IMG/VR virus record: IMGVR_UViG_3300044961_000667
Strand: one strand, 5' to 3'
Length of the DNA stretch: 64,000 nt
Source: a virus
This document shows positions 25,927 to 40,026 of this stretch, piece by piece (position 1 is the stretch's first letter; the number at the start of each line of letters is the position of its first letter). The notes under the pieces are model-generated. The model was not told the origin of the DNA. It saw nothing but the letters and a program-made list of their open reading frames with translations, and searched no databases. The position numbers and the translations under genes were made by a program.

Positions 25927-26251
25927 CAGCTTTTCTCCGTCGCGCCATTGGCGGCTCCGTTGCCGCTGACAACCGCGGGCTGAACTCGACTGGGGTTCGT
26001 CTCCGGCGTGAAGGGCGGCGTCACCATCGGCGTCTGCCCCGTGTCGAACGCCTTCCCGTCGGCGCCCATCTTTCGGCACCTGTCGCGGTCCTTGCACTCG
26101 AACTCCTCGGGACCGTTGTTCACCTTCAGGACGTTCAGCCCACCAAGCGTACTGTCGATGGGCTGCGTGACTCCGCAGAGTCGGCACTTCTTCCACGGCT
26201 TCGCGGGCTCGTAAGGCATGGAGTCCTTACTGCACGAGTTCGTCGAATTCG

Positions 26252-26707
26252 TCAATAGGACGAGACGATCTGACTGACAGCCGGGTACAGCTTCTCAACA
26301 GACTCGCGAGTCTGGTGCTCGACGCACAGCGGCCACGACTTCATGTCGACCCAGCCGATGTGCTGCGTCCAGGCTGAACAGATCGCGCAGCGGCGCTGCT
26401 CTTCCTCGTTCGGCTTGTCCGAGAAGCGCAGCTGCGTGTCGAGCAGGTACTTGCGGTAGCACGCCTGCGCCTCTTCGGCGGTGGCATGCCCGTCGGCGTG
26501 GTAGTTCGCCTTCAGCGGCTCGAACTTCGCCTGGTGTTCCTTCACCATGCGCTCGATCTGCTCCGGGGAGCCCACGTACGACAGGTCCTCCGCGGTGAGC
26601 GGCCTCCACGCCTTGCAGTACCCGACTGGCCACGTCTTGCCGTCGTTCATGCAGGTGAAGTCGAAACGCTGATCAGACAGCCTCTGTCTCGCGGCGTAGT
26701 AGTTGAT
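26252..26707 (-). CDS. Hypothetical protein (target gene of adjacent HNH); possible ATC start
   Basis: AGGAG-6 nt-ATC in frame with ATG 26650. Confidence 0.6.
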   Translation of the reverse strand: MNYYAARQRLSDQRFDFTCMNDGKTWPVGYCKAWRPLTAEDLSYVGSPEQIERMVKEHQAKFEPLKANYHADGHATAEEAQACYRKYLLDTQLRFSDKPNEEEQRRCAICSAWTQHIGWVDMKSWPLCVEHQTRESVEKLYPAVSQIVSSY

Positions 26708-26716
26708 GGTTGTCTC

Positions 26717-27193
26717 CTAGATGTGCGCCCAGCGCTCCTTGCGTTCAAGCTGGCCGACATACCTTCGGTCAACACCGAATTGCTTGGCCACGGTGCTCGG
26801 TGAAACACCTTCCTCACGGAGCTTCCGAATCTTCCGAACGGCGTCGCCAGTCAGCCTGGCATTGCCGTGCTTTTCGCCTGGGTGCATTCGCCCCCGAACA
26901 ACCGCGTCCTGAGAGTTCTCTTTGTAGGTCCCGAGCACAAGATGCTCTGGGCGGACACATCTACGGGTGTCGCACCGATGCCGCAGCACCTTGGTTCCGC
27001 GACCGCGCGGGAGAGACCCGAACCCATACGCCAACTCGTAAGCAAATCGGTGCACCAGCATCTGCGATCCGTCGGTCAGATAGAGGGCTCCATACCCCTG
27101 CTTGGTCGCACCACCAGTCCACAACCAACACGTATCGGTCTTCTGGACCCGGCTCCAGAACTTATCGATCAAACCTTGATCAAAATCGTTCAT
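26717..27193 (-). mobile_element. HNH homing endonuclease with C-terminal HTH
   Basis: CWLWTG...GYG...HRFAY...HRCDTRRCVRPEHL..GT..EN; atypical codon use. Confidence 0.9.
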
Positions 27194-27632
27194 GCAGTGG
27201 CGCAAGCCTCACGGGCTCGTCAGCAGGACTTTCACTTCTTCTTCTTGGACACCAGCTGGCCCAGGCTGAACTTGGGCTTCGGCGGGAGCGGGTCCGGACC
27301 CGGCGGCACGCCGGTGGGCACGGGCCTGGGAGCCACATCGGGCGGCGGCGGCGGCTTCACGGGCACGCCCAGCCGTCGATCGTCCTCGTCCAGCCAGACG
27401 TTCACCGACATGAGCGCCGCCGTCAGCGTGTCGAAGCGCTCCGACTGCTTCACGCTGGTCGAGCCGTTCGGGTACGAGCGGATCCACACCAGCTTCACAG
27501 GCTTCAGATCGCCAAGCGGTTGCCCGCGGCGAACAGCCCTCTTGTACGACTGGCTCGTCAGAACTTCGAGGTGTCCCTCCGGGCCAAGCCGAGCGAGCAC
27601 CCCGGAGTAGAGCTGTTCGAGATCGATGGACA

Positions 27633-27998
27633 TCAGTCGACCAGCTTCTCCAGTTGCCGCACGACGGCGAGGAACAGGTAGTCCTTCGCCTGCTGCTCCT
27701 TCGGCAACTGCTCGAATGGCACCAGACAGTGGTGCGTCGGGGGCTTCGCGTCGGGGTCCTTCTTCTCGCCGTACACCCAGCCCGTCGCCACCTTCTCCTT
27801 CATCCACTCGGCGTGCGAGTCGGAGGGCTTCGAGTCCGGATTGGCGAGGTGGTAGTTGACGCCCTTCATCACGGACACCTTCTGCCACTCAGGCGCCTCG
27901 CTCCACGGCACCTGGCTCGTGTCGCCGATGGCCTGGCAGTAGGCCCGATTCACCTCGTGGCACACGGACGCGATGACCTCAACTTTCGACTTCGCCAT
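27633..27998 (-). CDS. RyR-domain protein
   Basis: SHAEWMKEKVATGWVYG.KKD...THHCLVPFEQLP..QQAKD. Confidence 0.85.
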   Translation of the reverse strand: MAKSKVEVIASVCHEVNRAYCQAIGDTSQVPWSEAPEWQKVSVMKGVNYHLANPDSKPSDSHAEWMKEKVATGWVYGEKKDPDAKPPTHHCLVPFEQLPKEQQAKDYLFLAVVRQLEKLVD

Positions 27999-28662
27999 GA
28001 CCAGCCCTCCTTCGTTCCCACATGGCCAAAGCGGCCAGTCGGTTCTTTTCGCGTGCCTCCGGCGAGTGTTTCTTGCCGGAAAAGTTCTTGTTGCCCATCA
28101 GACCAAGGCTGATGTTCAGGCTCCGCTCGGCGCTGTGTTTCTTGCCAGTCCGCTGCGTGACCAACAACTGGATCGTCTCCGGCGAATGCTTCTTTCCGAT
28201 CTGGGCCGACCGAAGCATCTCCTGAATGTGCTCTGGCCGAGACTTGCCACGATGGAGAGCGGCCAGCTTTCTCCTGGTCTCTGAAGAAAGCGTCCGCCCC
28301 TTCTGCGCCGCAGACATCTTCGCCTTAGCTTCCGGCGTGTGCCTGTACCCAAGAAGCGAACCGGCCTTGGGCGCCAGATTGTACGGCGGACTCAGCACGT
28401 CGATGTGGTGCTGCTCTCGCTCAACGAGCATGGCTGGATCTTCGACCCGCTCCACCACGGAGAAACGGAACGACGCCTCGCCGTACTTGTTCCAGGCCAT
28501 CTGCAGTTTCTGATTGGGGTGCGTTCCGCAACGGAGATGATGTCGATGACCGTACCAACGCTTGGCACCGTGGACTGCGCTCCCAACGTAGAACTTGCCG
28601 TTGACGACGTTGGAGATCCTGTACACGCAGGAAAAGCTGGCGATCTTCTCGACCTTCGACAT
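27979..28662 (-). mobile_element. GIY-YIG homing endonuclease with NUMOD3 repeats
   Basis: CVYRISN...FYVGSA...RW..H...HPN..LQ.AWNKYG; repeated G.KHS.E. Confidence 0.9.
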
Positions 28663-28716
28663 GGGCTTCTCCTTTTCGTCCCATAGAGCCCGCATGGTCG
28701 CCGGCGTCAAGCGCTC

Positions 28717-29011
28717 CTATTTCTGGCCAGCCAACACCATGCGCAGCTTTCGCATAGCCTTGTCGGCGTCGTACAGCGCGGCCTCAAGCCTCTTGGCGGC
28801 CGGGTGCGGACCGAGCGCATCGATGAAGTGCTGGATGTCGATGAGAATCTCATCGAAGTGGGTCTTGTGGCTCCGCAGCTTCGCGAGGATGTCGCTGGCG
28901 GCCCCGCCGAGGGGCTCTTCGGCTTCCCCCCAGCGCCAGCTTCACGGACTCCAGGAGGGCGTTGGTGCGATCGAACGGACTACGACGAGACTCCACGCGC
29001 ATCTGATTCAT
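28717..29011 (-). pseudogene. Fourth TNxLLESVK-leader gene, frameshifted in a G6 run
   Basis: RTNALLESVKLALG; removing one G restores EAEEPLGGAASDIL...LAGQK*; span is 3n+1. Confidence 0.7.
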
Positions 29012-29167
29012 GGCCAGCCCTCCCTCGTTTTCTCCACCGTCTTTTGAACTGCACGATGATGTAGCCGCGCTGCCTCGCCGGCAACACCGCTTTCACCTCG
29101 CGGCGCCTGCCATCGGTGTACACCACGACGTCCCCCGGCTTCAGCTGCTTCAGCGTCTTGAGCGTGC

Positions 29168-29515
29168 TCATCGTTTTCCCCCGTCGTAGGCGACGGCGTG
29201 CCCGGCGCGGATCATCTCTTCGTTCACCACCACGCCCGCCCCGTTGACGATGGTGGCCAACATCCGTCCGTACTTGTCGGACTCGTCCTTCTTCGTGCGG
29301 ATCGTGACCGGCCCCTTCGACATCAGGTCCGCCATGTACTTGGTCGCCGCCTGCGCCCTCGCCCTTTCGGTGGCGTCCTTCGACGACATCTCCGGCGTGT
29401 TGATGCCGAGTAGTCGGAAGCGCTCCTCGACGTGGACGCTGAAGCCCAGGTCGACGCGAAGGTCGACGGTGTCCCCGTCGACGACCTTCAACAACGTCGC
29501 CCTGTACTCGTACAT
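29168..29515 (-). CDS. Thermonuclease (SNase) family nuclease
   Basis: KVVDGDT...RLLGINTPE...DKYGRMLA...VNEEMI..GHA. Confidence 0.9.
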   Translation of the reverse strand: MYEYRATLLKVVDGDTVDLRVDLGFSVHVEERFRLLGINTPEMSSKDATERARAQAATKYMADLMSKGPVTIRTKKDESDKYGRMLATIVNGAGVVVNEEMIRAGHAVAYDGGKR

Positions 29516-29545
29516 ATCGACCCCTGGTGCAATCGATTGCGCGAC

Positions 29546-29863
29546 TCAGTCCTCTTCGGACTCGTCGTCGTCAGCCTCGTCCGCCATGGATTCGATCCGC
29601 TGGCGAAGATCGTCGATGTTCCCAGTCTGGTGGCGGCCGGCAATCCACCCCTTCAGGTGCGGAATGATGTAGGCCGCCATCACGGGCTTCAATCCCGGAA
29701 CGGAGCGGTACACCTCCTTGAGGGACTCCAAAACATCCCTGATGCCCTCTTCGGCGTCATCGAGAGCGCTCAGCGCGGCATCGAAGTCAGAGCCAGGTCG
29801 AATCCCTTCGTGAAGCTCGCGCTTCACGGACTCCAACAGCGTGTTGGTCTTCTTCAGGTTCAT
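29546..29863 (-). CDS. Hypothetical protein with TNxLLESVK leader
   Basis: MNLKKTNTLLESVKRELHE; GAGGAGG RBS. Confidence 0.8.
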   Translation of the reverse strand: MNLKKTNTLLESVKRELHEGIRPGSDFDAALSALDDAEEGIRDVLESLKEVYRSVPGLKPVMAAYIIPHLKGWIAGRHQTGNIDDLRQRIESMADEADDDESEED

Positions 29864-29897
29864 GGTTCCTCCTCTTGTGCAATCGATTGCGCGTGCT

Positions 29898-30302
29898 TCA
29901 GCCGGCCTTGACAATGGCCCAGACGGCCCTGGCAACCTGGAGGCAGTCCGCCATCTCCTTCATCGCCATCTCGATGTCGCCCGCAGTCATGTTCTTCGGG
30001 TTGAATCCGTACCCGCCGATCTTCCCCGGCTCCAGGCCAACGCCAAGCTGCGCCATGCCGTGCGTGCCATGGATGTCGAACGTCTGGTCCATGCCCCATT
30101 GCTCGATGTTCTTCAGCACGCGATCGGCGCCGCCGTAACGATACTTTGCCCGCCCCGACGTCAGCGCGCGAGCGATCTTCTGGGCGAGAACGGGGTCGAC
30201 CGAATCCGTAGCCTCCCCGATGTATCGCGAGGAGCGCCTGGCCGGATTCGCCAACTCCTTCTTCACCGACTCCAACAGGACATTCGTTCTCTTCAGATCC
30301 AT
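29898..30302 (-). CDS. Hypothetical protein with TNxLLESVK leader
   Basis: MDLKRTNVLLESVKKEL. Confidence 0.8.
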   Translation of the reverse strand: MDLKRTNVLLESVKKELANPARRSSRYIGEATDSVDPVLAQKIARALTSGRAKYRYGGADRVLKNIEQWGMDQTFDIHGTHGMAQLGVGLEPGKIGGYGFNPKNMTAGDIEMAMKEMADCLQVARAVWAIVKAG

Positions 30303-30319
30303 GATTGAGTTCTCTTTCT

Positions 30320-30829
30320 TTACTTCGGGGCGGGCTTCGTCAGATCGCGATTGTTGTGCAGGTACGACGCGATTTGCTGGCTCATCGCGTACAACTGATT
30401 CGACAACCGCTTTGCGAACGCCTTGGCTTCGGGCACATCGCTGAACCGAGCCACCTGCGTGAGAGAGTGGGCCGCCTTGCCGTCGAACATCTCCACGCGG
30501 GCACGATCGAGAAAGTCATAGGTGTCCTTCGCGTCGTGGCCTGTCGCCTCGCCGAGGCTCTTGGACTTGCGCGGCCGGTTGCCGGGCGTGCTGGTCAGCT
30601 CGTCGTGAAGCTCTTCGAGCGCGCGAATCGCGGCGTCGACCGGCGTCACGGAGATCATCGAGCCGAGCTTGCCCTTGTTGGCCCTCAGCTCCTTCACCAT
30701 CTTCGCGACACGCCCCTCCCAGTTCGTGAGATCGGCGTCCAGGTCCTCCTTCACCGGGCGGCTACGCCCCGAGAGGCGGCTCTTCACGGACTCCAGGAGG
30801 GCGTTGGTCTTCTTCGGGTCCACGGGCAT
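30320..30829 (-). CDS. Hypothetical protein with TNxLLESVK leader
   Basis: MPVDPKKTNALLESVKSRL. Confidence 0.8.
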   Translation of the reverse strand: MPVDPKKTNALLESVKSRLSGRSRPVKEDLDADLTNWEGRVAKMVKELRANKGKLGSMISVTPVDAAIRALEELHDELTSTPGNRPRKSKSLGEATGHDAKDTYDFLDRARVEMFDGKAAHSLTQVARFSDVPEAKAFAKRLSNQLYAMSQQIASYLHNNRDLTKPAPK

Positions 30830-30835
30830 GTCTCC

Positions 30836-30895
30836 TCAGAAGCAGCAGCTATCACGATAGCCGCACTTGGGGCACTTGTCGTCTGTCGGCTTCAT
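30836..30895 (-). pseudogene. Displaced duplicate 3' end of the zinc-ribbon gene
   Basis: MKPTDDKCPKCGYRDSCCF* versus MKPEHAHYICPKCHYRDSCCF* at 31282-31347. Confidence 0.8.
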
Positions 30896-31278
30896 GCGAC
30901 CCTCAATGCGTTGACGTTTGGACGAGGACGCTTGAGGTACGCCTCAGCCAATGGTTGGAGCCCTCGCTCCACGCCCCCAATGAACCAGTTGCAGAACGCA
31001 CACAGCAGCCCTCTGACGTCACCGGTCTGATGATCGTGGTCGACATGCAGCAGCGCCCTGAAATTGCCAGGCAGTTTCTCTGGCGCCTTGCCGCAACAAG
31101 CACAGACTCCGCCCTGCTTTTCAAGCAGCGAGTCGTACACCTCGGCGGTGATGCCGTACCGCTTCTTCAGGGTGTGGGTCCGCTTGCGATCGTACGACGC
31201 CGCCATCCATCGCTCGTGACCGACTGGGTCACGAGCGATCCTGGCCTTGGTCCATCTGGCGTTCGTCGACTTAGTCAT
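30892..31278 (-). mobile_element. Endonuclease VII-family homing endonuclease
   Basis: YGIT...QGGVCACC...LHVDHDHQTGDVRGLLC..CN. Confidence 0.9.
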
Positions 31279-31281
31279 GAC

Positions 31282-31479
31282 TCAGAAGCAACACGAGTCC
31301 CGATAGTGACACTTCGGGCAAATGTAGTGCGCGTGTTCGGGCTTCATCGTCGTCGAGCACTGGGGGCACGACGTCGACAAGTCGCAGCTCGCCGGCTTTT
31401 CTTCCGTCAGCACTCGCGCGTTCGACGGCTGGCGCGAGCGCTGCGGAAGCTCCTCTGTGATCAGTCCCGGCTTTTGCAC
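31282..31479 (-). CDS. Small zinc-ribbon protein
   Basis: CPQC...CPKC..RDSCCF. Confidence 0.7.
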   Translation of the reverse strand: MQKPGLITEELPQRSRQPSNARVLTEEKPASCDLSTSCPQCSTTMKPEHAHYICPKCHYRDSCCF

Positions 31480-31819
31480 CGGGCCAATCTACGCGGCCTG
31501 GTTTTCAGATTCAAGAGCGTACTCCTTCAGAGCCAGCTCGACGGCCTCAGCCTGCTGCTCCGAGGTGTGCTGCTTGAAGTGCACCTTTCGCCGGCTGTGG
31601 GCGATGAGCTGGTACAGCCGACTGGCGTGCTGCTTCTCGGCTTTCAGCCGGGCGATCGTGCCAGGCGTGAACTTCTTGAACGTCGGGTCCCAGCTGCCGC
31701 TCTCCAGTCGCGGCTGATGCGACTCGCGGAGAATGCCCTTCAGCATCTTGATCTCCGCCTCGATGTCCTTCCGGTCCTGGTGCAGCTTCTTCAGGTTCAG
31801 CTTCATGGCCTTCTCTCCT

Positions 31820-32165
31820 TCAACGAAGCAAGGAGAGCCGCCCGAGCGCCCTCCTCACGGTGGGGGTTCGGACGGTGGGCACGATGCCCAACGCCATGAG
31901 CGCGCCGTTGAAGGGCGCGTCGGGCTCTCTGATGGCTGTGTGCGGGATGCCGAGACGCTGAAGCTCGGCTTCGAGCCGAAGCAGCTCCTCCTCGTCGGAG
32001 ACGGCAAGAGCAACAGCTCTGGTACTCGGGGGGACTTGCTCGCGGACGGACTCGCCGGCCGCGTGAATCGTCTGGGCAACCTGCACCCCTGGGGGCAGGT
32101 CTCGCCTCAAGACGACGTAGTGGTACAGCGGCTCTTCGTTACAGCACTACCTGGCTCAGCGACAT
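31820..32165 (-). CDS. Peptidyl-tRNA hydrolase type 2-like (Pth2/PTRHD1); the RBS-linked ATG is one frame off
   Basis: YHYVVLRRDL...QVAQTIHAA...IREPD...ALMALG. Confidence 0.8.
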
Positions 32166-32181
32166 GTGCTTCTCCTTTCAG

Positions 32182-32210
32182 CGCCCACGACGGGACTCGA
32201 ACCCGCTTCG
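32182..32210 (-). pseudogene. 3' part (T arm and acceptor) of split tRNA-like gene
   Basis: GCGGG TTCGAGT CCCGT CGTGGGC G pairs with GCCCTCG at 32758-32752. Confidence 0.8.
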
Positions 32211-32620
32211 ACGACGATGGGTTCTTTCAGCATGGCAGTTGGCACAAACAACCTCGCACTTCGCCAACTCCATTCTCACATCTTCCTCTGAACGGGCGTG
32301 GTTGACCATCCTCGACACGTCGTCTTGCTTCGTTCCCCTGACGTGATCAAACTGCATCACCCACGGCCCATACTGATGGCCACAGTCCGTACACGGCGTC
32401 GTGCTCTTGATCTCGTTGGCGATCTTGCGAAGCGTTTCACGCTTGATCGACTTGTACGCCCTGTTCTTGTCGACGTACTTCTGGTGATTGGAGCGGTAGT
32501 GCTTTCGCGAACCCTTCTGCATGCACACCCGACATCGCGAATGCCGCAGCGTCGGCTTCCTCTTCCAGTTGAAGTCGTCCTCTGACTTGAACCGTTCGCA
32601 TCCGGAGCACCACTTCTGAA

Positions 32621-32696
32621 CGCCCCCGGCGGGAATCGAACCCGCAACCCGTTCGCCTGTAGTCGGCGACAGCTCTGCCAGTTGAGCTACGGAAGC
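32621..32696 (-). tRNA. Intact tRNA-like gene with non-canonical loop GACUACA (central triplet CUA; identity undetermined)
   Basis: Cloverleaf with normal D and T arms; A33, C37, 3 extra nt. Confidence 0.75.
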
Positions 32697-32711
32697 ATCT
32701 TCCACATCATC

Positions 32712-32758
32712 TCCGTCCACCTGTAGTCGGCGGTTGCTCGCCTATGAGCTACGAGGGC
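32712..32758 (-). pseudogene. 5' part of split tRNA-like gene (same GACUACA loop)
   Basis: GCCCTCG TA GCTC ATAGGC GAGC AA CCGCC GACTACA GGTGG ACGG. Confidence 0.8.
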
Positions 32759-33046
32759 CTGTTCCAACCTGAGGAGATCGTAACTCCTGCAGGAGTTTCG
32801 TCAAGTGACTGACTGCGCCGGCTCCTTGCAGTCGATGCAGTAGCCGCACGAGCCGCACCGGTACTTCACCCAAACGCCCTGCACCTTCGACACCCCCGCC
32901 GAGCGTCCGTCCTCCTGGCGCGTGATGCCAGGCTTCTTGCACTGCGGGCAGATGCCTTGCTTCAGCTTCTCGTCGATCTGCTGACTCCATTCCTGGATGG
33001 CAGCGACAACGTCCTGAGGCGGCTCTTTCACTTCTCCTCCGTACCA

Positions 33047-33426
33047 TGGAGCTGCGGGGAATCGAACCCCGGTCCGAAAGCCTTCAGTCCTTCGACTCTA
33101 CGTGCGTAGCCGCTGTCACCGCGGCCGAGTCCTGCTGCCCGCTGGTCTTTCCCCGCATTCGCCGAGCGGACTGGGCGGGGGCAACTCCTGGGTGGGTTTC
33201 GCCTCGCCAGCTACGCAGGAGCGCCTCGCTGGTTCGACGGAGAGCTAAGACTTTCGGTCCGCTCTCAAGCCCTGATCAGGGCAACCGCTCACGCGGCTGC
33301 GAGCATCGGGGCCGCCTCGACGTTGTCGTTGGCGGTTGTGGTTTCTCACTGGGATTTACGAGCACAGCGAGCTGCTCGGCACGCATCTCAGGTCGTCTTT
33401 GCCCCCGTCGAATCCAGTTCAGCCCC
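33047..33426 (-). ncRNA. ssrA: tmRNA; tag peptide ANDNVEAAPMLAAA
   Basis: 5' GGGGCTGAACTGGATTCGAC, 3' GGTTCGATTCCCCGCAGCTCCA, G3-U70; tag frame 33333-33289. Confidence 0.95.
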
Positions 33427-33806
33427 GTTCACTGCTTCCTTCAAGCAACGGCGATAGGCGCCCGTGCCGAACATCCGGTCGGTGCGCCCAACGCAGGGAG
33501 TTGTGGTCCCCCGCATCGCCGTCCTCATCATCTCGCGCGTCGGTGTCGCCTGCACTTTTCGCACTGGCCCGTGCTGTCGAACACGCACAGCTCCTGATTC
33601 ACACCGCATCCCACGTACTGCGCGACCGAGTCGACGCGGAGCTGGGCTTCGTGGCCGCTCTCACGCGAGTCCGCTGCTCTCTGCGACTGCTCGTTCTGCG
33701 TCATGGGGGTGCGCCTTCTGTTCTTGGTCGAACTGACTGTCAAGATCATCAATGACACCAGTGGACAGTGTTCGTCAAGGGGAACCGGACAGCAGCGACA
33801 GTTTCT

Positions 33807-33872
33807 CGACCCGTCCAGGAGTCGAACCCAGCACCACGCCCTTAGAAGGGGCCGGCGGATCCATCACGGGCC
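33807..33872 (-). tRNA. tRNA-Arg(UCU), D arm reduced (66 nt)
   Basis: GCCC CTTCTAA GGGC; T arm and acceptor intact. Confidence 0.7.
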
Positions 33873-33885
33873 TCAACAACAACAG

Positions 33886-33970
33886 CGGAGCGCCCGAGAG
33901 TCGAACTCGGCTGACCCGTGAAGGTCGTCGCGTTAGCAGTGCGATGCCGTCCCACGCTGGCTCACGCTCC
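33886..33970 (-). tRNA. tRNA-Ser(GCU)
   Basis: Loop CTGCTAA, long V arm, G73. Confidence 0.9.
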
Positions 33971-33973
33971 ATG

Positions 33974-34061
33974 CGGAAAAGGCGAGAGTCGAACTCGCAG
34001 ACCGCCCGAAGACGATCGTCCGCTTTCCAAGCGGGTGGGCTCACCAGTGCCCAGCTTCTCC
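33974..34061 (-). tRNA. tRNA-Ser(GGA)
   Basis: Loop TTGGAAA, long V arm. Confidence 0.9.
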
Positions 34062-34064
34062 ATG

Positions 34065-34153
34065 CGGAGCGGGTCCGAGTCGAACGGACAGCCCGCCTTT
34101 CGACGAGCAAGCGCTTTCGAGACGCTCTGACTTGCCTGTGTGCAAACCGCTCC
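34065..34153 (-). tRNA. tRNA-Ser(CGA)
   Basis: Loop CTCGAAA, long V arm. Confidence 0.9.
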
Positions 34154-34249
34154 AGAAACACCCTCAGATGACCGCCTGAGGGGCGCGGGGGCCTGTTGGC
34201 CGAGATGCCCCTAGCTGTCGCCAGTTCGTGAGCGTCTCGGGACGGCTTG

Positions 34250-34336
34250 CGGAAGACGGAGGACTCGAACCCCACACCCACTCGGGGTGCCGACCGCTTT
34301 CAAGGCGGGCCAGCGTCCATCACTGGTTCATCTTCC
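34250..34336 (-). tRNA. tRNA-Ser(UGA)
   Basis: Loop CTTGAAA, long V arm. Confidence 0.9.
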
Positions 34337-34337
34337 A

Positions 34338-34667
34338 TCACTGCGATCGCGGCTGATCGGCGTTCCAGACGGAGCGGCCCATCGCTCCCTCATCGGCCTC
34401 AGCGTTCTTCAACATCGAGTAGTAGTCCGGTCGCTCCTTCAGGTGCGCCCAGGCGATCTTCCCGATGTCGAGCAGGTCGTCAACCACGTCGGTCTCCGGG
34501 TCGACGTCATGCTCCGACTCAACCCCGAGACCGGCCGCGAACTCTCCGAGGTCGACCTGGCTCCAGTCGATCCCCAGCTGGTCGCCAACCCACTTCGCCA
34601 GCTCAGGGCTCCATGCCGGCGCCTCGCCGACCTCTTCCTTCAGCTGCCTGACGAGCTTCCTGAGCAT
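34338..34667 (-). CDS. DUF5661-like protein
   Basis: GIDW...EFAAGLGVESEH...KIAWAHLKERPDYYSML. Confidence 0.75.
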   Translation of the reverse strand: MLRKLVRQLKEEVGEAPAWSPELAKWVGDQLGIDWSQVDLGEFAAGLGVESEHDVDPETDVVDDLLDIGKIAWAHLKERPDYYSMLKNAEADEGAMGRSVWNADQPRSQ

Positions 34668-34707
34668 GCGGTGGCCTCCGGGCGCACAGTACACCCAGAG
34701 GCCACCC

Positions 34708-35250
34708 TCAGTCTTCCAGCTCGGTGTTCCAGTACGCCACCGAGGCGAGCCACTGCTTCCACGGCTCGGGCATGCCCTTCTTCCAGGTGAAGGTGAGCCG
34801 CACCGACTCGGGCAACGACTTCGGCTTCACCGGCACCTGCAGGAGCTTCATGCCTGCCTGCGCTGGCGTCCGACCGCCCTTCTTCTGGTTGCAGGGCGTG
34901 CACGACACCACGATGTTCTCCCACGTCGTGTGGCCGCCCTGCGTGCGCGGGACGACGTGGTCGTACGTGAAGTCGTGCCTGGGCACCTTCGCCGAGCAGT
35001 ACTGGCACTTGCCCTTGTCTCGCGTGAAGACGTTCTCGCGACTGAACTTGATCGCCTTCTTCTTGCCGCGGATCGCCCGGAGGAACCGGATCACCGACGG
35101 CACCTTGAACTCCAACGTCATCGAGCGGACGGTCTTGTCCTCGTACTCCTCGACGACTTCCACCTTCTCCTCCCAGAGGAGGGTGATCGCCCGTTGCCAG
35201 CTCACGCGGGCAACCGGGGTGTAGCCAACATCGAGCACCAGCGTTTCCAC
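34708..35250 (-). CDS. HNH endonuclease (McrA-like)
   Basis: TLVLD..Y.P...WQRAI...PSVIR...SRENVFTRD...CQYC...DHVVPR.QGG.TTWEN...C..CN. Confidence 0.9.
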   Translation of the reverse strand: METLVLDVGYTPVARVSWQRAITLLWEEKVEVVEEYEDKTVRSMTLEFKVPSVIRFLRAIRGKKKAIKFSRENVFTRDKGKCQYCSAKVPRHDFTYDHVVPRTQGGHTTWENIVVSCTPCNQKKGGRTPAQAGMKLLQVPVKPKSLPESVRLTFTWKKGMPEPWKQWLASVAYWNTELED

Positions 35251-35288
35251 GTTGCCCGTCCTTTCTGCGGCCTTCGCCGCGGTGAGTG

Positions 35289-35373
35289 TAGTCCCGGCCG
35301 GACTCGAACCGGCACGGCCTTTGTGGCCACTGGGGTTTGAGCCCAGCGCGTCTACCGACTCCGCCACGGGACC
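35289..35373 (-). tRNA. tRNA-Leu(CAA)
   Basis: Loop CTCAAAC, long V arm. Confidence 0.9.
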
Positions 35374-35378
35374 ATCTG

Positions 35379-35467
35379 TGCTCGGGGCGAGACTCGAACT
35401 CGCATGAGGCTTTCGCCCCACCGGCTTCTGAGGCCGGCGTGTCTACCGAAGGTTCCACCACCCGAGC
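35379..35467 (-). tRNA. tRNA-Leu(CAG)
   Basis: Loop CTCAGAA. Confidence 0.9.
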
Positions 35468-35478
35468 ATGCACTTCAG

Positions 35479-35565
35479 TGGTCCGGGCGAGAGTCGAACT
35501 CGCATGATCTTTCGATCGGCAGGCTCTCAACCTGCTGTGTCTACCGGAGGTTCCACCACCGGACC
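35479..35565 (-). tRNA. tRNA-Leu(GAG)
   Basis: Loop TTGAGAG. Confidence 0.9.
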
Positions 35566-35569
35566 AAAG

Positions 35570-35642
35570 TACCCGCTCTCGGAATCGAACCGAGCCCTCC
35601 GCCTTGTGAAAACGGCGCTCTCACCAGTTGAGCTACGCGGGC
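35570..35642 (-). tRNA. tRNA-Val(CAC)
   Basis: Loop TTCACAA. Confidence 0.85.
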
Positions 35643-35645
35643 ATG

Positions 35646-35717
35646 TCGTGAGCCTGGGAGTCGAACCCAGCTGGGCGGATTATGAGACCGCTGCCTTCCC
35701 TCGATGGCTTGCTCACG
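35646..35717 (-). tRNA. tRNA-Met/Ile2(CAU)
   Basis: Loop CTCATAA. Confidence 0.85.
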
Positions 35718-35720
35718 GAG

Positions 35721-35793
35721 TAGCAGGGGCTGGGATCGAACCAGCGTTCTCCAGGTTATGAGCCTGGCGAGATGACCTCTTCTCCACCCTGCA
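35721..35793 (-). tRNA. tRNA-fMet-like (CAU)
   Basis: Loop CTCATAA; unpaired 1:72. Confidence 0.85.
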
Positions 35794-35794
35794 G

Positions 35795-35868
35795 TACTCC
35801 CGGAGGGACTCGAACCCCCAGCCTCTTCGTTCGTAGCGAAGCGATCTGATCCGTTGATCTACGGGAGC
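35795..35868 (-). tRNA. tRNA-Arg(ACG)
   Basis: Loop CTACGAA. Confidence 0.9.
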
Positions 35869-35880
35869 ATCAAACAACAG

Positions 35881-35954
35881 CGGTCTCGGCGGGACTCGAA
35901 CCCGCGGCCTTTCGCTTCGGAGGCGAACGCTCTCATCCACTGAGCTACGAGACC
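35881..35954 (-). tRNA. tRNA-Arg(CCG)
   Basis: Loop CTCCGAA. Confidence 0.9.
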
Positions 35955-35956
35955 AG

Positions 35957-36029
35957 CGTTCCCGGAGGGACTCGAACCCCCGACTTCTCCGTTAGGACCG
36001 GAGCACTCTTCCAACTGAGCTACGGGAAC
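35957..36029 (-). tRNA. tRNA-Arg(CCU)
   Basis: Loop GTCCTAA. Confidence 0.85.
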
Positions 36030-36035
36030 ATCCTG

Positions 36036-36106
<71 letters not shown>

Positions 36107-36505
36107 TCAACCAACCACGTACTTCTCAGCCAACTTCACACCGGACTTCTGACCGTTCTTGGCAGGCTCGACCCGAAGCTGCCCGCCAACGGCCCCAACC
36201 TCCTCGACCGGGACCAGATACACCGCATCCAACTCTGGGCAGTGGACGCCGAAGAACTCGACCTCACCGCGGTACGACTTTCTCCCAGTCCCTCGGTGAG
36301 CCGAGTTGCTGCTGGTGTCGAAGACAACCGCTCCATTCTTGAGCCGCCCAGTCTTGCACTGCACTCGCTGGAACCCGGCATCAGTGTCGATCACCAGGTC
36401 GTAGCGCTGGTTCTCTCCAATCGGGAGCAGCACCGTCCTCCCGGTCTTGAGCAACGCCGCCATCACCGCACCCTCTGTTCTCGTCCCCTGCGCCTTGGTG
36501 TTCAT
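36107..36505 (-). mobile_element. PD-(D/E)XK endonuclease (group I intron-associated type)
   Basis: G...E......LLP.GENQRYDLVID...RVQCKTGR...Y.GEVEFF. Confidence 0.85.
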
Positions 36506-36520
36506 GCTCCACATCTACCA

Positions 36521-36567
36521 CACCGCTCGGACACCAGCCGAGTGCTCTGCCTTCGAGCTGCGGGGGC
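36521..36567 (-). pseudogene. 5' fragment of tRNA-Thr(GGU), no T arm
   Basis: GCCCCCG CA GCTC GAAGGCA GAGC A CTCGG CTGGTGT CCGAG CGGTG. Confidence 0.85.
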
Positions 36568-36571
36568 GCTG

Positions 36572-36644
36572 TGGATCTGGCCGGACTCGAACCGGCAACC
36601 TTCTGCGTGCAAAGCAGCCGCTCTCCCATTGGAGCTACAGACCC
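36572..36644 (-). tRNA. tRNA-Ala(UGC)
   Basis: Loop TTTGCAC, G3-U70. Confidence 0.9.
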
Positions 36645-36649
36645 TTCAG

Positions 36650-36722
36650 TGGAACCGGCGGGACTTGAACCCGCCACCTCTCGCATGCGAAGCGAGCGCT
36701 CTCCCAGATGAGCTACGGCCCC
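36650..36722 (-). tRNA. tRNA-Ala(CGC)
   Basis: Loop TTCGCAT, G3-U70. Confidence 0.9.
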
Positions 36723-36727
36723 AGGTG

Positions 36728-36798
36728 TGCGCGAGCAGGGAGTCGAACCCTGTCGTCTCCCGCGTCGGGGGAGTGCTCTACCGGTGAGCTACACGCGC
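36728..36798 (-). tRNA. tRNA-Val(GAC), C33
   Basis: Loop CCGACGC. Confidence 0.85.
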
Positions 36799-36887
36799 AT
36801 GGGCAGGCGGTGCTTTCGCCGAGCTGCCAGCAGTCACCACGTTCGTGACCCCGGCCCTGCTCGGTAGACTGCCACCTCTCCTGCTTG

Positions 36888-36960
36888 TGGACCCGGCGGG
36901 GATCGAACCCGCTACCTCTCGCATGCCATGCGAGCGCTCTCCCAAGTGAGCTACAGGCCC
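36888..36960 (-). tRNA. tRNA-Ala(GGC)
   Basis: Loop ATGGCAT, G3-U70. Confidence 0.9.
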
Positions 36961-37052
36961 TAAGCGAGGCAGTTCGTAACGCTGCCTGCCCGGCTTTCCA
37001 CCGGCGCGGGTTGATCAGACCCACGAGACTTGCCCGGAGCGACCGGGCCATG

Positions 37053-37125
37053 TGCCGTCCCTCGGAATCGAACCGAGATCCTCCGCTCTTCAGGCGGGTG
37101 CATGGACCACCACTGCCAAGACGGC
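37053..37125 (-). tRNA. tRNA-Phe(GAA)
   Basis: Loop CTGAAGA. Confidence 0.9.
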
Positions 37126-37134
37126 GTACTTCAG

Positions 37135-37206
37135 CGGACCCGAACGGAATCGAACCGTCCTCGCCGGCGTGACAGGCCGGTCGCCTCACCAGATGCGTAC
37201 GGATCC
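37135..37206 (-). tRNA. tRNA-Asp(GUC)
   Basis: Loop CTGTCAC, G73. Confidence 0.9.
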
Positions 37207-37211
37207 AACAG

Positions 37212-37294
37212 GGCGACTGGAGAGAATCGAACTCTCACTGAGCTTTCGCTCGCGGGGTCACAACCCGCTGGGAACCCATTTCCCATCAGCCGCC
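37212..37294 (-). tRNA. tRNA-His(GUG) with long variable arm
   Basis: Loop TTGTGAC; G-1:C73; V arm GAGC-GAAA-GCTC. Confidence 0.85.
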
Positions 37295-37302
37295 AGAAGA
37301 AA

Positions 37303-37422
37303 TCTGCTCCACCCGAGTGAGGAAGGCATGAAACGGGTTTGAACCGTCTGGTCGATTTAGCAGATCGACTGATCACCAAGATCAGTAGTGCGTGTGAGCC
37401 ATCCTCGGCCGGGTGGTGCAGA
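37303..37422 (-). ncRNA. tRNA-mimic RNA (D, anticodon and T arms on a long imperfect stem)
   Basis: GATC TTGGT GATC / GTCGAT CTGCTAA ATCGAC / ACGG TTCAAAC CCGT inside TCTGC..CCACCCG..GAGGA terminal stem. Confidence 0.65.
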
Positions 37423-37423
37423 G

Positions 37424-37495
37424 TCCGCCGCAGTGGAATCGAACCACTTGCCTCTCGCTTATCAGGCGAGTGCTCTTCCAGTGAGCTACCGGCGG
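37424..37495 (-). tRNA. tRNA-Ile(GAU)
   Basis: Loop CTGATAA. Confidence 0.9.
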
Positions 37496-37504
37496 GCACG
37501 TCAG

Positions 37505-37578
37505 TCAGGGTGGCTGGGATCGAACCAGCGACCTCCTGCATCCGAAGCAGGCGCGCTACCAGGCTGCGCTACACCCTG
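37505..37578 (-). tRNA. tRNA-Pro(CGG)
   Basis: Loop TTCGGAT. Confidence 0.9.
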
Positions 37579-37588
37579 TTGAGTCAAG

Positions 37589-37625
37589 TCAGGTCGGCTG
37601 GGATCGAACCAGCGATCTCCTGCAT
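37589..37625 (-). pseudogene. 3' half of split tRNA-Pro(GGG)
   Basis: AT GCAGG AGATC GCTGG TTCGATC CCAGC CGACCTG A. Confidence 0.9.
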
Positions 37626-38035
37626 CACCAGACGTGGTCACTGGCCAGCAGGATGTTCTTCTTGGCCCCATTCGCGGGGGCCTCCAATCTCACATGCAGG
37701 ATCGACTTCCCCTGGAACTCCTCAGGCAGGAAGGCCGTCACCACGTCCATCTCAGGCAGATACACCAGAAGCAGGTCAACCTCCCCGACCTCATACTTCT
37801 TGAACGACTTGTTGCTCGGTCCCACCCACGTCCTCAGAGCCACAGTCGCCACGCCGGACGAATGAGACGACTTGCCGCCTCCATACTTCGCTTGGGCCCG
37901 GATCAACCTAACACCATCATCCAGAACCAGATCGTACCTGGCATCGGTTGTGGGCCGACTGACGACAAACCCCTTCTCAATCGCCCTCTGCTGCGCCTTC
38001 AGCGATGCCACTTCACCCTTCTGCCTGGTGTCCAC
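37625..38035 (-). mobile_element. PD-(D/E)XK endonuclease inside split tRNA-Pro
   Basis: KGE......GFVVSRP...RYDLVLD...RAQAK...Y...EVDLLLVY. Confidence 0.85.
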
Positions 38036-38066
38036 TTCTCTTGCGTACCACACAGGAGAACATCTG

Positions 38067-38138
38067 TCGAAGAGACTGGACTCGAACCAGCATCCTCACG
38101 GCCCCCAGCCGTGCGCTCCACCATTGAGCTACTCCTCG
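38067..38138 (-). tRNA. tRNA-Pro(GGG), intact copy nested inside the split gene
   Basis: Loop CTGGGGG. Confidence 0.9.
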
Positions 38139-38143
38139 TCACG

Positions 38144-38178
38144 CCCGAGCAGGCGCGGTACCACTCCGCTACGACCTG
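38144..38178 (-). pseudogene. 5' half of split tRNA-Pro(GGG)
   Basis: CAGGTCG TA GCGG AGTGGTA CCGC G CCTGC TCGGG; pairs perfectly with the 3' half. Confidence 0.9.
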
Positions 38179-38182
38179 AAAG

Positions 38183-38254
38183 TCTGGAAGGCGGGGATCG
38201 AACCCGCGACCTCTCGCGTCCAAGGCGAGCGCCCTACCGCTGGACTACTTCCAG
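38183..38254 (-). tRNA. tRNA-Pro(UGG)
   Basis: Loop CTTGGAC. Confidence 0.9.
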
Positions 38255-38438
38255 TTGTGCAATCGATTGCGTTCAAAACTGTGCAGTGCGGACTGGCGGT
38301 TTGCACCCGCTGCACCGCATTGTCGGCCTGGCCTCAATAGGCCGCACGGTCCCACGCCGTCGAACGCCAGGACCTGCACCAACCACCGCCATGTTCGACC
38401 TGCCAAGCGGTGCCCGTTCATGCCGGGATGCTGCACAG

Positions 38439-38510
38439 TACCCCGTACGAGAATCGAACTCGTTTCGCTCGCTTGAAGGGCGAGGGGCCTAACCAATGGC
38501 CGAACGGGGC
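38439..38510 (-). tRNA. tRNA-Glu(UUC), C33, intact copy downstream of HNH
   Basis: CTCGC CCTTCAA GCGAG. Confidence 0.85.
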
Positions 38511-38845
38511 TTCTCTGCTCGATCATGCGTCCTCTGCCGATGACAGTTGGCGCAGACCACTTCACATTTCTCGATCTCGGCTACGACCTTCTCAGGTCCG
38601 ACACCGTGCCTCTTGAACTGCCCCAGGCTGAACTCCTTCCGACCCCTGACGTGATCAAAGTCCATCACCCATGGCGGATAGGCGACACCGCAGTCCGCGC
38701 ACGGCCTGGACTTGGCTTTGTCGATGATCGCCTTGATCGTCTCTTTGTAGGCCGCTGCCGCTCTGATGTACGAGATCTTGTTCTTCTCGTAGTGCCTGCG
38801 GCTGTACTCGGCCTGCTTCGACTTCGACGGCTCTCTGAGCGGCAT
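38489..38845 (-). mobile_element. HNH endonuclease, paralog of 32178-32705
   Basis: PCADCG...VMDFDHVRG...KCEVVCANCHRQRT; last codons overlap tRNA-Glu. Confidence 0.9.
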
Positions 38846-38872
38846 TCTTCGTCATACCACTTGACGAACCTT

Positions 38873-38924
38873 TCGTCACTCCACCTTGAAAGGGTGTCGG
38901 CCTCACCTGAAGCACCAACGGGGC
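38873..38924 (-). pseudogene. 5' fragment of tRNA-Glu(UUC)
   Basis: GCCCCGT...CACC CTTTCAA GGTG, then AGTG ACGA and breaks off. Confidence 0.8.
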
Positions 38925-38929
38925 TGAAG

Positions 38930-39000
38930 TACCGCGTACGGGTGTCGAACCCGTCTCACTGGGCTGAGAACCCAGGGACCTCCCGGAAGTCGAACGCGGC
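38930..39000 (-). tRNA. tRNA-Glu(CUC)
   Basis: Loop TTCTCAG. Confidence 0.9.
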
Positions 39001-39006
39001 TTGAAG

Positions 39007-39079
39007 AGGCGGAGGCGGGAGTCGAACCCGCTCGATGTCGGTTTTGCAGACCGATGCCTTCCCAGTTGGCTACTCCGCC
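39007..39079 (-). tRNA. tRNA-Cys(GCA)
   Basis: Loop CTGCAAA, U73. Confidence 0.9.
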
Positions 39080-39101
39080 AGGGAAAGACGAGACTGTGCA
39101 C

Positions 39102-39458
39102 ATGAAGCGCGTGCTGTGCCTTGATGACGACGACATGGTGGCCCGGCTCATCGCCGAGGTGGTCGAGTTCTGCGGACACGAGCCCGTTCGAGAGAGCGAC
39201 CCGCTGAAGGCTTCCTCGGACCACCTCCACGACCGGAAGATCGCTGCGGTGCTCACCGACTACATGATGCCTCGCCTCGATGGCGTCGACGTTCTGGTGG
39301 TCTGGCAGGAGTCTCGACCCGAGGTGCGCCGAGTGCTGATCACCGCGGCCCCGAACGAGCCGGCGGTGAAAGAGGCCCTCCGCACCGGCGTCGCTCAGAT
39401 GGTGATCGCTAAGCCTCCGACGATCGCCGACATCAAGATGGCCCTGGCCTGGCTCTGA
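39102..39458 (+). CDS. Single-domain response regulator (CheY-like receiver)
   Basis: VLCLDDD, TDYMMPRLDG, LITA, IAKP. Confidence 0.9.
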   Translation: MKRVLCLDDDDMVARLIAEVVEFCGHEPVRESDPLKASSDHLHDRKIAAVLTDYMMPRLDGVDVLVVWQESRPEVRRVLITAAPNEPAVKEALRTGVAQMVIAKPPTIADIKMALAWL

Positions 39459-39459
39459 G

Positions 39460-40023
39460 CTACCGCTTCTTCCTCGCCAGTCGCTCCTCCAGCTGCTGAA
39501 CCGACATCTGGATGGAGTCGTTGATCGACCGCATCATGTCCTGCCGGAGCTTGTACTCCAGCTCCTGCAGCTTCTTGTCGGAGGCGTCCTTCGACTCCTT
39601 CTCGCGCTGGCGGTAGTACTCACCCTGTTTCTCGATGCGCTGGTCCACCGCCTGCCGGATCTCCGAGACCGTTCCCTTCATGGCCTCGATGGCCGACAGC
39701 ACCTGCTTCATCTCGGTCTGAACGTTGCCGACCGACTTGTCGATACCGGCCAGGGCGTCGCTCTGCTCGTCGAACTTGTCGTCGTGCTCGTCGAGCCGCT
39801 CTTCGGTCTTCTGCTTGTCCTTGTCCTCGCGGTCGACCGTCCGCGAGCCCAGCCACTTGACGAAGCCAACGACGGCTCCGATCAACTGGGTGACGACTGC
39901 TGCTCCGACCAGCAAGTACAGCCCGGTCAGCCCGTCACCTGCTGGCGCTGGCGGTGGGGTTGCTGCTGCGGCTCCTGCCGCCGCCGCCGCCGCCGGGCCC
40001 GCCGCCAAGATCAACAGGTTCAA
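39460..40023 (-). CDS. Single-TM coiled-coil membrane protein
   Basis: Hydrophobic segment followed by heptad repeats. Confidence 0.7.
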   Translation of the reverse strand: MNLLILAAGPAAAAAAGAAAATPPPAPAGDGLTGLYLLVGAAVVTQLIGAVVGFVKWLGSRTVDREDKDKQKTEERLDEHDDKFDEQSDALAGIDKSVGNVQTEMKQVLSAIEAMKGTVSEIRQAVDQRIEKQGEYYRQREKESKDASDKKLQELEYKLRQDMMRSINDSIQMSVQQLEERLARKKR

Positions 40024-40026
40024 GAA

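Follow-up and report, generated by a model that had tools for sequence, protein, structure and literature searches.

A stretch of DNA of 64,000 nucleotides (nt) from an uncultured phage, IMG/VR record IMGVR_UViG_3300044961_000667 (hereafter the window, at its full length), contains cassettes built around nuclease genes that lie inside tRNA genes and open reading frames (ORFs). Five of these cassettes are polymorphic insertions among closely related strains, and four of the five bear a diverged spare of the segment that they displace: a complete tRNA with the same anticodon in two of them (the Pro and CUA units), the 5′ two-thirds of a tRNA-Thr in the third, and the recoded 3′ end of a protein gene, accompanied by an EndoVII gene, in the fourth. 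In our reading, to which we give a probability of roughly 0.8, the cassettes are free-standing homing-endonuclease units that reside inside genes, bring along a diverged spare of the displaced segment and spread by cutting the unbroken allele.

The window has a G+C content of 63.9%, and every gene in it, like each of the features given below, is on the minus strand. Its eight nuclease genes all lie between 26.7 and 38.9 kb, and seven of them define the units that we call A to G; the other content includes tail-fibre-like and collagen-like genes, 39 tRNA genes identified by ARAGORN and one tmRNA.

Filled and empty alleles in sister strains

Twenty public metagenome runs from 13 studies matched parts of 30000-39500. 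Alleles were compared by aligning Logan contigs from eight runs (one per study, eight studies; denoted below by X and a number) to 26000-39500. Joints were accepted only with sides of 67-255 letters or in long collinear records, and those with sides of 21-26 letters linking distant tRNAs were set aside as cross-matches. Empty alleles were modelled by joining slices of the window at the observed joints and running ARAGORN on the product, and the significance of duplicates was expressed as the z value of the local alignment score against 1000 shuffles.

Five of the seven cassettes were cleanly absent from contigs of near-identical strains, and the joints gave insert sizes of 446-518 nt (486, 446, 507, 461 and 518 nt for units E, G, D, A and B). 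The flanks of the filled and empty forms were about 96-100% identical between strains. An empty allele was present in six of the eight runs for unit E, in four for unit B, in three each for units D and A (in two forms for the latter) and in two for unit G. X7 contained a single contig of 123,753 nt, collinear with the window and with 1-18 differences per aligned piece, from which all five cassettes were missing. Once an insert is removed, its flanks join into an intact gene: the tRNA-Pro(GGG), the tRNA-Thr(GGU) and the CUA-loop tRNA in units B, A and D, the whole 65-codon gene in unit G and, in unit E, the 26252-26650 gene with a longer start.

Filled forms were also recovered from other runs (X8 record 17, which spans units G and D; X17 records 3 and 4; X9 record 23; X5 records 9 and 12), and X5 had both filled and empty forms of units B and D. 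The presence of filled contigs in independent runs indicated that the window is not an assembly artefact. Two doubts raised with the original prediction, namely that empty alleles might not exist and that the duplications might come from assembly, are thereby settled: empty alleles were found for five of the seven units, in up to six of the eight runs, and assembly as the source of the duplications is excluded by the filled contigs of X8, X17, X9 and X5. For units C and F, no credible empty allele was found among the eight runs.

Replacement tRNA sequences carried by the PD-(D/E)XK cassettes

The clearest geometry was seen in unit B, where a resident tRNA-Pro(GGG) gene is split in its anticodon loop, directly 3′ of the anticodon. 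The old 5′ half, which extends up to the anticodon (38144..38178; z 8.8 against the tRNA-Pro(CGG) of the same phage), is followed by 5 nt, a complete 73-nt tRNA-Pro(GGG) (38066-38138; Rfam tRNA, 61.2 bits), 12 nt, a PDDEXK_5 ORF (PF11645; 37625-38053, Pfam E 2.7e-22) and the old 3′ half (37588..37625; z 18.6 against tRNA-Pro(CGG)). The cassette of 518 nt (37626..38143) is absent at the joint 37625->38144 in X5, X7, X8 and X17 and present in X5 record 12; the final base of the nuclease stop codon is supplied by the resident sequence. The modelled empty allele was recognised by ARAGORN as a 73-nt tRNA-Pro(ggg) with a perfect cloverleaf and the loop UCGGGAU.

Because the old halves scored 21 and 33 against the tRNA-Pro(CGG) of the phage, and the 5′ half only 13 against the new tRNA-Pro(GGG), we consider the resident tRNA-Pro native and the spare foreign. 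The old and new anticodon arms have 7 of 17 positions in common. The donor of the Pro cassette was not found: a 23-nt piece of the new anticodon arm matched 10 IMG/VR loci, which had 49-60 of the 73 tRNA positions in common with the new tRNA and no PDDEXK gene nearby, and a 24-nt piece of the old tRNA-Pro half had no match in IMG/VR. As a separate observation, the resident tRNA-Pro(GGG) of the sister strains has C at position 33, which is unusual for elongator tRNAs, and the new tRNA-Pro has the usual U.

In unit A, a cassette of 461 nt (36065..36525) interrupts a tRNA-Thr(GGU) gene and leaves its 5′ two-thirds behind as a remnant (36526..36567), which matched Rfam tRNA positions 1-47 at 16.7 bits and was scored as 3′-truncated. 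At the other end of the cassette, a new 5′ two-thirds of tRNA-Thr(GGU) (36106-36065) abuts the stop codon of the second PDDEXK_5 ORF (PF11645; 36107-36514, Pfam E 3.3e-37) and continues into the resident variable loop, T arm and acceptor 3′ strand (36035..36064), a part common to the old tRNA-Thr and to the working one (36035-36106). The remnant and the new copy are identical at 34 of 46 nt (z 9.0), with compensatory changes in the anticodon stem, and their anticodon arms have 10 of 17 positions in common. The joint 36064->36526 was present in X18 (side 181), where it was clean by record arithmetic, and in X9. Since this allele consists of the whole old tRNA-Thr, the cassette comprises a leader, the PDDEXK ORF and the new acceptor strand, D arm and anticodon arm. 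X7 had a different joint, 36078->36540, which also removes 461 nt and combines the old acceptor strand and D arm with the new anticodon arm in the absence of the nuclease gene. Both forms, when modelled, gave a 72-nt tRNA-Thr(ggt) in ARAGORN. The X7 allele may have arisen as a partial conversion tract or through recombination within 9 shared letters that removed the nuclease gene; the original prediction did not foresee an allele of this kind.

Elsewhere in this part of the tRNA array, X7 and X17 had about 100 extra letters at 37210, between tRNA-Asp and tRNA-His, and X7 had about 75 extra letters at 35869-35884, between tRNA-Arg(ACG) and tRNA-Arg(CCG), each the size of one tRNA gene. A further tRNA at 35479-35565 was found by Rfam (44.4 bits) and missed by ARAGORN.

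An HNH cassette in a tRNA gene with a CUA anticodon

Unit D repeats the Pro arrangement with a different nuclease family. The old 5′ part of the resident tRNA, consisting of the acceptor strand, D arm and anticodon arm with the loop GACUACA (32717..32758; z 9.8), is separated by a cassette of 507 nt (32210..32716) from the old 3′ part with the T arm and acceptor 3′ strand (32181..32209; z 7.1). The two parts are contiguous in X5, X7 and X18 (joint 32209->32717, with three other letters), and the modelled empty allele forms a 74-nt cloverleaf. Within the cassette, a 19-nt leader (32716-32698) containing GGAG and GTG precedes a new complete tRNA with the same GACUACA loop (32620-32697; ARAGORN, and Rfam at 41.4 bits). 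The HNH ORF (32178-32720; phrog_2255, PHROGs E 4.8e-28, from residue 35) has its stop at 32178, inside the old 3′ tRNA part, which encodes its last codons. This ORF most likely reads through the tRNA gene, because no start codon follows the tRNA; its G+C content at third codon positions (GC3) is 0.69.

In both tRNAs of this unit, the amber-reading anticodon CUA is preceded by A instead of U, and ARAGORN names the new one 'Pyl'. Of the 81 candidate ORFs of the window, 17 stop at TAG, so this codon is not generally reassigned in the phage. A small PTH2-like gene (PHROG 1866; 31820-32110) and the tmRNA (33047-33426) lie at the edge of the array, a combination also described for Cluster C mycobacteriophage arrays (PMC5966550).

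An EndoVII cassette with a recoded gene end

The same design was found at the end of a protein gene in unit G. Here a cassette of 446 nt (30877..31322) supplies a recoded 3′ end of 13 codons and a stop (31322-31279) to a 65-codon gene, and the stop and 3 nt separate this patch from the Endonuclease_7 ORF (30892-31278; Pfam E 2.4e-19; GC3 0.72). The displaced resident 3′ end, which encodes KCPKCGYRDSCCF followed by a stop, lies beyond the nuclease gene (30836..30876) and continues directly from 31323 in X7 and X18 (joint 30876->31323, with no letters between in X18). Patch and remnant differ at 12 of 42 nt, eight of these differences being synonymous and distributed over six codons (including a Ser tcg/agc switch), so that 11 of 13 residues are kept (z 11.5). 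In the empty gene, 31323 is followed straight by the sequence that is the remnant here (KCPKCG...), so it was the upstream copy (ICPKCH...) that arrived together with the EndoVII gene. The last 19 nt of the cassette resemble the target upstream of the joint, a sign of an earlier stay in a diverged homologue.

The Glu, GIY-YIG and HNH_3 units

Unit C (38438..38924) contains a complete tRNA-Glu(UUC) (38438-38510) that overlaps by 22 nt the end of the second phrog_2255 HNH ORF (38489-38845; PHROGs E 1.2e-27), preceded by what may be the degenerate 5′ part of a tRNA-Glu(UUC) (38924 to about 38870; z 6.2). The unit was filled in X5, X7, X8, X17 and X9; a joint 38213->38874 in X17 was set aside, one side measuring only 22 letters. 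The tRNA units fall into two arrangements: in Pro and CUA the resident tRNA is split around the new tRNA and nuclease gene, and in Thr, and probably Glu, a 5′ remnant alone is left. The working tRNA-Glu(UUC) has the loop CCUUCAA, with a C at position 33 that is unusual for elongator tRNAs. At 38929-39000 ARAGORN reported a tRNA-Glu(CUC) that had no Rfam match at E<=1.

Unit F differs in that the duplicated part would be a gene start. The first nine codons of the GIY-YIG/NUMOD3 ORF (27979..28662, within the listed ORF 27979-28710; Pfam) read MSKVEKIAS (28662-28636) and resemble the start, MAKSKVEVIAS, of the downstream gene with a RyR domain (27633-27998; 27633..28013 with its own ribosome-binding site and recoded start; Pfam RyR, PHROG 5154). 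These nine codons, with their ribosome-binding site, have the appearance of a RyR-gene start that was displaced, and the recoded start now in front of that gene is presumed to be a replacement 5′ end. In the best ungapped window the two peptides have 7 of 9 residues in common, compared with a maximum of 5 in 300 cross-locus controls; at the DNA level the duplicate reached z 3.7, and the synonymous differences between the copies include a Ser agc/tcc switch. The GIY-YIG domain begins after residue 10, and in most of 63 loci the alignment to relatives starts at residue 9-13. A KVEQIA-type N-terminal motif is typical of the RyR family.

No run covers 27804-28254, and the match of X5, X8 and X18 is limited to an island of 31 nt at the old start. 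The region 27627-28945 (the RyR gene, the GIY-YIG gene and 235 nt upstream) was the sole part of 26000-39500 matched at >=85% by no run, and X7 has 1292 unalignable letters where the window has 1319, between flanks that match at about 96-100%; the pattern suggests that a distant donor supplied a replacement allele. Adjacent to it, 28717-30829 holds a tandem family of small genes with a TNxLLESVK motif near the start. X5, X7, X17 and X18 were without one member of this family (joint 29865->30320, 454 nt, 11 other letters), and no nuclease gene is located there.

In unit E, a cassette of 486 nt (26702..27187) was absent from X5, X7, X17, X18, X9 and X13 (joint 26701->27188, with 3 ambiguous letters). 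It inserted 1-2 codons after a resident ATG (27193-27191), which is captured as the start codon of the HNH_3 ORF (26717-27205; Pfam E 2e-08), and consists of the HNH_3 body, a TAG stop and then GGAG, 6 nt and ATC AAC. In the empty alleles, reading of the target gene, whose body is 26252..26701, begins at the ATG at 27193 and runs in frame without a stop, so that the 132-codon ORF 26252-26650 is longer by about 19 codons; the one strain difference noted in this extension, at 26666, falls on a third codon position. The HNH_3 ORF has a GC3 of 0.68, against 0.89 for the target gene. Both copies of CTGCATGAAC are kept in the empty alleles. The CMND repeat, first taken for a patch brought by the HNH_3 gene, is hence resident, and this unit bears no recoded patch.

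The original prediction assigned diverged duplicates and a carried replacement to seven nuclease genes of four families. By the shuffle z values and the peptide control, the duplicates held for six of the seven, HNH_3 being the exception. The replacement is supported by empty alleles for both PD-(D/E)XK units, the CUA unit of HNH type and the EndoVII unit, and for GIY-YIG by evidence internal to the window; it does not apply to HNH_3. Three families are therefore well supported and the fourth, GIY-YIG, is probable, and seven was too high a count. A complete isoacceptor tRNA is carried in the Pro and CUA units, and from the joint positions the Thr unit brings only the 5′ two-thirds of one.

The nuclease genes and the search for introns and integrases

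Pfam and PHROGs confirmed the predicted set of eight nuclease genes, and the count is correct because none of 62 further ORFs of the window had a homing-type nuclease domain at E<=1e-5. The two phrog_2255 HNH proteins are 49% identical to each other and the two PDDEXK_5 proteins 31%; ORF 36107-36514 matched the PDB 2ost chain, which we take to be I-Ssp6803I, at E 1.8e-09. The seven cassette nuclease ORFs have GC3 values of 0.68-0.78, compared with 0.85-0.93 in neighbouring genes, and thus carry a foreign codon bias. The eighth gene, HNH_5 (34708-35421; Pfam E 1.8e-15), has no flanking duplicate, resembles resident genes in its GC3 of 0.87, and is present in the X7 contig with 1 difference across 32717-35869. 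Its true start probably lies below 35288, because the listed start overruns two tRNA-Leu genes.

The expectation that the cassettes would lack an intron core, transposase or integrase was borne out. An Rfam search of 26000-42000 at E<=1 detected no group I or group II intron, and no integrase or transposase domain was present in the 13 and 62 ORFs scanned. Fewer than 90 nt of each cassette remain once the ORF and tRNA are subtracted, and each nuclease ORF forms a separate frame that ends at its own stop. An integrase-borne element in a tRNA gene was considered and rejected on the lack of an integrase and on the repeats, which are diverged (65-75% identical) and often copy the 5′ part.

Related arrangements in other phages

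Cultured phages gave no megablast match to 26000-39500. Syntenic relatives were not found in IMG/VR through the RyR gene (29 loci with 47-63% identity over the full gene, all non-syntenic), the 332-aa gene (no match) or the PTH2-like gene (two loci, L031 and L032, neither syntenic). A metagenome scan for relatives yielded one distant locus only (L033), and a 39-nt conserved stretch had no match in a scan of genome contigs.

Similar layouts were present in more distant phages. The low-GC IMG/VR phage L030 has a 5′ fragment of a class-II tRNA, a PDDEXK_5 gene (29% identical) and a tRNA-Ser. Among 20 IMG/VR loci with HNH relatives, nine had tRNA genes no more than 1.5 kb away. In L034, L037, L043 and L047 the HNH ORF ends against or inside a tRNA, and in L036 a tRNA lies about 90 nt behind it. 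Units of half-tRNA, nuclease gene and same-anticodon tRNA, for which the original prediction proposed a scan, were present in two of these five HNH-tRNA neighbours, where a 5′ fragment with the same anticodon precedes an HNH gene overlapping the full tRNA (L037, Thr UGU; L047, Gly UCC); L034 and L043 had no tRNA remnant. In Myxococcus phage Mx1 (L118, OR576727.2), locus 600-949 encodes an unannotated HNH ORF, 56% identical to the window's over 85 residues, which occupies the space between tRNA-Gln and the annotated tRNA-Lys and overlaps the latter.

Proposed mechanism and alternatives

An intron-like spread that dispenses with splicing is likely because the cassettes bring a spare copy of the part that they displace. 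Under this mechanism, each nuclease would recognise and cut the uninterrupted resident allele near the insertion point; for the I-Ssp6803I-like PD-(D/E)XK enzymes, the palindromic anticodon arm would be a natural target. During repair of the break in a mixed infection, the cassette would be copied in from a cassette-bearing genome, and the displaced pieces on both sides would serve as homology arms, as exons do in intron homing. The spare would keep the gene functional without splicing and would itself escape cutting through divergence of the site: old and new anticodon arms agree at only 7 (Pro) and 10 (Thr) of 17 positions, and the two gene ends at 30 of 42. Nuclease and spare would be held together by their tight packing: the nuclease stop abuts the tRNA in unit A, ORF and tRNA overlap by 22 nt in unit C, the ORF runs through the tRNA in unit D, and a resident base completes the stop in unit B. 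The remnants would later decay and leave a nuclease gene beside a tRNA, as in cultured phages. Cleavage, immunity of the patch and homing are what we infer from this geometry.

Several points weigh against this account. Cleavage, specificity, immunity and biased inheritance are all deduced from sequence, and presence or absence of a cassette gives no direction of gain versus loss. Since the X7 Thr allele could be a product of recombination between repeats, some of the empty alleles may be secondary losses. The evidence from other runs consists of assembled contigs at 85-88% likeness, not reads. Unit E is without a real patch, and its target gene, with ATC in place of ATG, may be impaired. The 5′-end patch of unit F, which is probable, lacks the support of an empty allele, and a duplicated start of this kind was found in none of 56 loci of GIY-YIG relatives. 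Unit C is likewise a case built on internal similarity, with five runs filled and no credible empty allele, and Rfam saw no tRNA in its Glu fragment at E<=10. Finally, the HNH genes of Phabba and Mx1 overlap a tRNA without any remnant, an arrangement that we read as the settled end state.

The alternative that survives best, though we think it improbable, is that the cassettes are selected cargo and not selfish homing elements: the new tRNAs or the nucleases would aid the phage, for instance against tRNA-cutting defences, and the nuclease would promote local recombination. Such a role has a parallel in SegB, which, in the passages seen, drives an amplification of the tRNA locus that rescues phage T6 from Septu (PMC13096335). 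It would also fit the concentration of differences between the old and new tRNAs in the anticodon arm (7/17 and 10/17 positions common, as given above) and the exchange of C for U at position 33 of tRNA-Pro. However, the same design occurs at the end of a protein gene in unit G, where no tRNA benefit applies, and the cassettes are polymorphic and not fixed; a benefit of this kind would be compatible with homing, not exclusive of it.

We consider very unlikely a second scenario in which tandem paralogues came first and a nuclease gene landed between or in one of them later, so that no patch was ever carried. Phage tRNA arrays do hold several isoacceptors in a row, and the CMND repeat of unit E is indeed resident, but the empty alleles of units B, D, A and G hold one copy each, the second copy being missing together with the nuclease gene, and the new tRNA-Pro does not resemble the Pro tRNAs native to the phage. 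A missed spliced element (a group I intron in a tRNA anticodon loop, or an intein) or an assembly chimera can be set aside as the least credible alternative: the Pro cassette does sit in an anticodon loop, and I-Ssp6803I, a PDDEXK_5 relative, is encoded by a group I intron in a tRNA-fMet gene, but the intron search of 26000-42000 was empty, less than 90 nt of a cassette is left beyond ORF and tRNA, the nuclease ORFs have their own stops, and the filled forms recur in independent runs.

If spread by homing with a carried spare is correct, homing endonucleases can inhabit essential-looking genes without an intron or intein by bringing a replacement part, and the filled and empty alleles described here are natural examples of it. 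This would hold for RNA and protein genes alike and for several nuclease folds within one 13-kb stretch. The overlap of ORF and tRNA would lock the nuclease to its spare, the displaced halves would act as the homology arms, and the cassettes may deliver tRNAs with altered anticodon arms that are relevant to tRNA-cutting host defences. Such units would also provide a concrete mechanism for the abundance of HNH-type genes in phage tRNA arrays and for the exchange of isoacceptors between phages. For annotation, half-tRNAs and short duplicated gene ends beside nuclease genes should be regarded as scars and not as noise, and each cassette offers a ready specificity pair, a target and a presumably immune sequence, for testing site-specific nucleases.

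Comparison with known systems

The cassettes share with free-standing homing endonucleases a nuclease-family ORF, the lack of an intron or intein housing and, in five of seven units, presence or absence at the locus. They depart from T4 seg and mob genes in location, interrupting tRNA genes and ORFs where the latter lie between genes. The closest precedent in a phage tRNA cluster is T4 SegB, a free-standing GIY-YIG gene whose product, in the portions of the report available to us, cuts tRNA genes at a T-arm motif and drags flanking DNA along, and which is absent from T2L, RB1 and RB3 (PMC2330249). Like Seg/Mob intronless homing as described there, we find free-standing nuclease genes in a tRNA cluster that close relatives lack. 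Unlike segB, the cassettes lie inside the target gene with pieces of it on both sides and carry a substitute, and their nucleases belong to the PD-(D/E)XK, HNH and EndoVII families; the available passages of PMC2330249 describe neither a split tRNA nor a same-anticodon spare, and the string 'duplicat' occurs nowhere in that paper.

HNH genes in tRNA arrays are also known from actinophages (Cluster M and C mycobacteriophages, Streptomyces BE-type phages), and in the cultured phages Phabba and Mx1 a homologue of the window's HNH overlaps the next tRNA; in contrast to these two examples, a remnant of the displaced tRNA is present here. No other gene is as frequent a passenger of mycobacterial and phage tRNA arrays as HNH, and Pope et al. 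2014 is cited for a role of HNH genes in the diversity of tRNA repertoires (PMC5966550, PMC6409571). In the literature searched, from which Pope et al. 2014 was missing, no paper was found that describes a nuclease cassette splitting a phage tRNA and bearing its replacement.

Both PDDEXK_5 ORFs of the window match PF11645, and the Pro cassette lies in the anticodon loop; the target of I-Ssp6803I is the anticodon region of the tRNA-fMet gene. The passages seen of one report describe a 23-bp pseudo-palindromic target read by this enzyme and do not mention an intron or the tRNA-fMet gene (PMC3384342). Where an intron-encoded enzyme leaves the tRNA to be restored by splicing, the units described here have no intron and contain a spare tRNA or tRNA part instead, and no ribozyme core of the group I type was seen in Rfam.

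The gene-end version has its counterpart in mobile ORFs (mORFs) of fungal mitochondria (Allomyces atp6; Glomus atp6, atp9, cox2 and nad3), described in the passages seen as gene hybrids with a foreign C-terminus: the endonuclease ORF is located within the 3′ portion of a gene, a diverged C-terminal copy is in frame upstream, and the native C-terminus, matching that of relatives, lies downstream (PMC3630166). This exact layout was found in unit G only, with the patch at 31322-31279 and the remnant at 30876-30836. The fungal elements encode LAGLIDADG or GIY-YIG enzymes in mitochondria and are often fused in phase to the host gene, whereas unit G encodes an Endonuclease_7 (His-Me finger) enzyme in a phage and as a separate ORF, and the same phage also has RNA-gene versions and, presumably, a 5′-end version (unit F). 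The gene-end form is thus already known from fungal mitochondria, and the tRNA form is, as far as we searched, apparently unpublished. We give even odds to the view that the nuclease-plus-spare units make up a distinct and widespread class of mobile element that spans four or more nuclease folds and is a major driver of tRNA-array turnover and of gene-end swapping among phages; such a class would have the geometry of an intron, with a carried substitute in the place of splicing.

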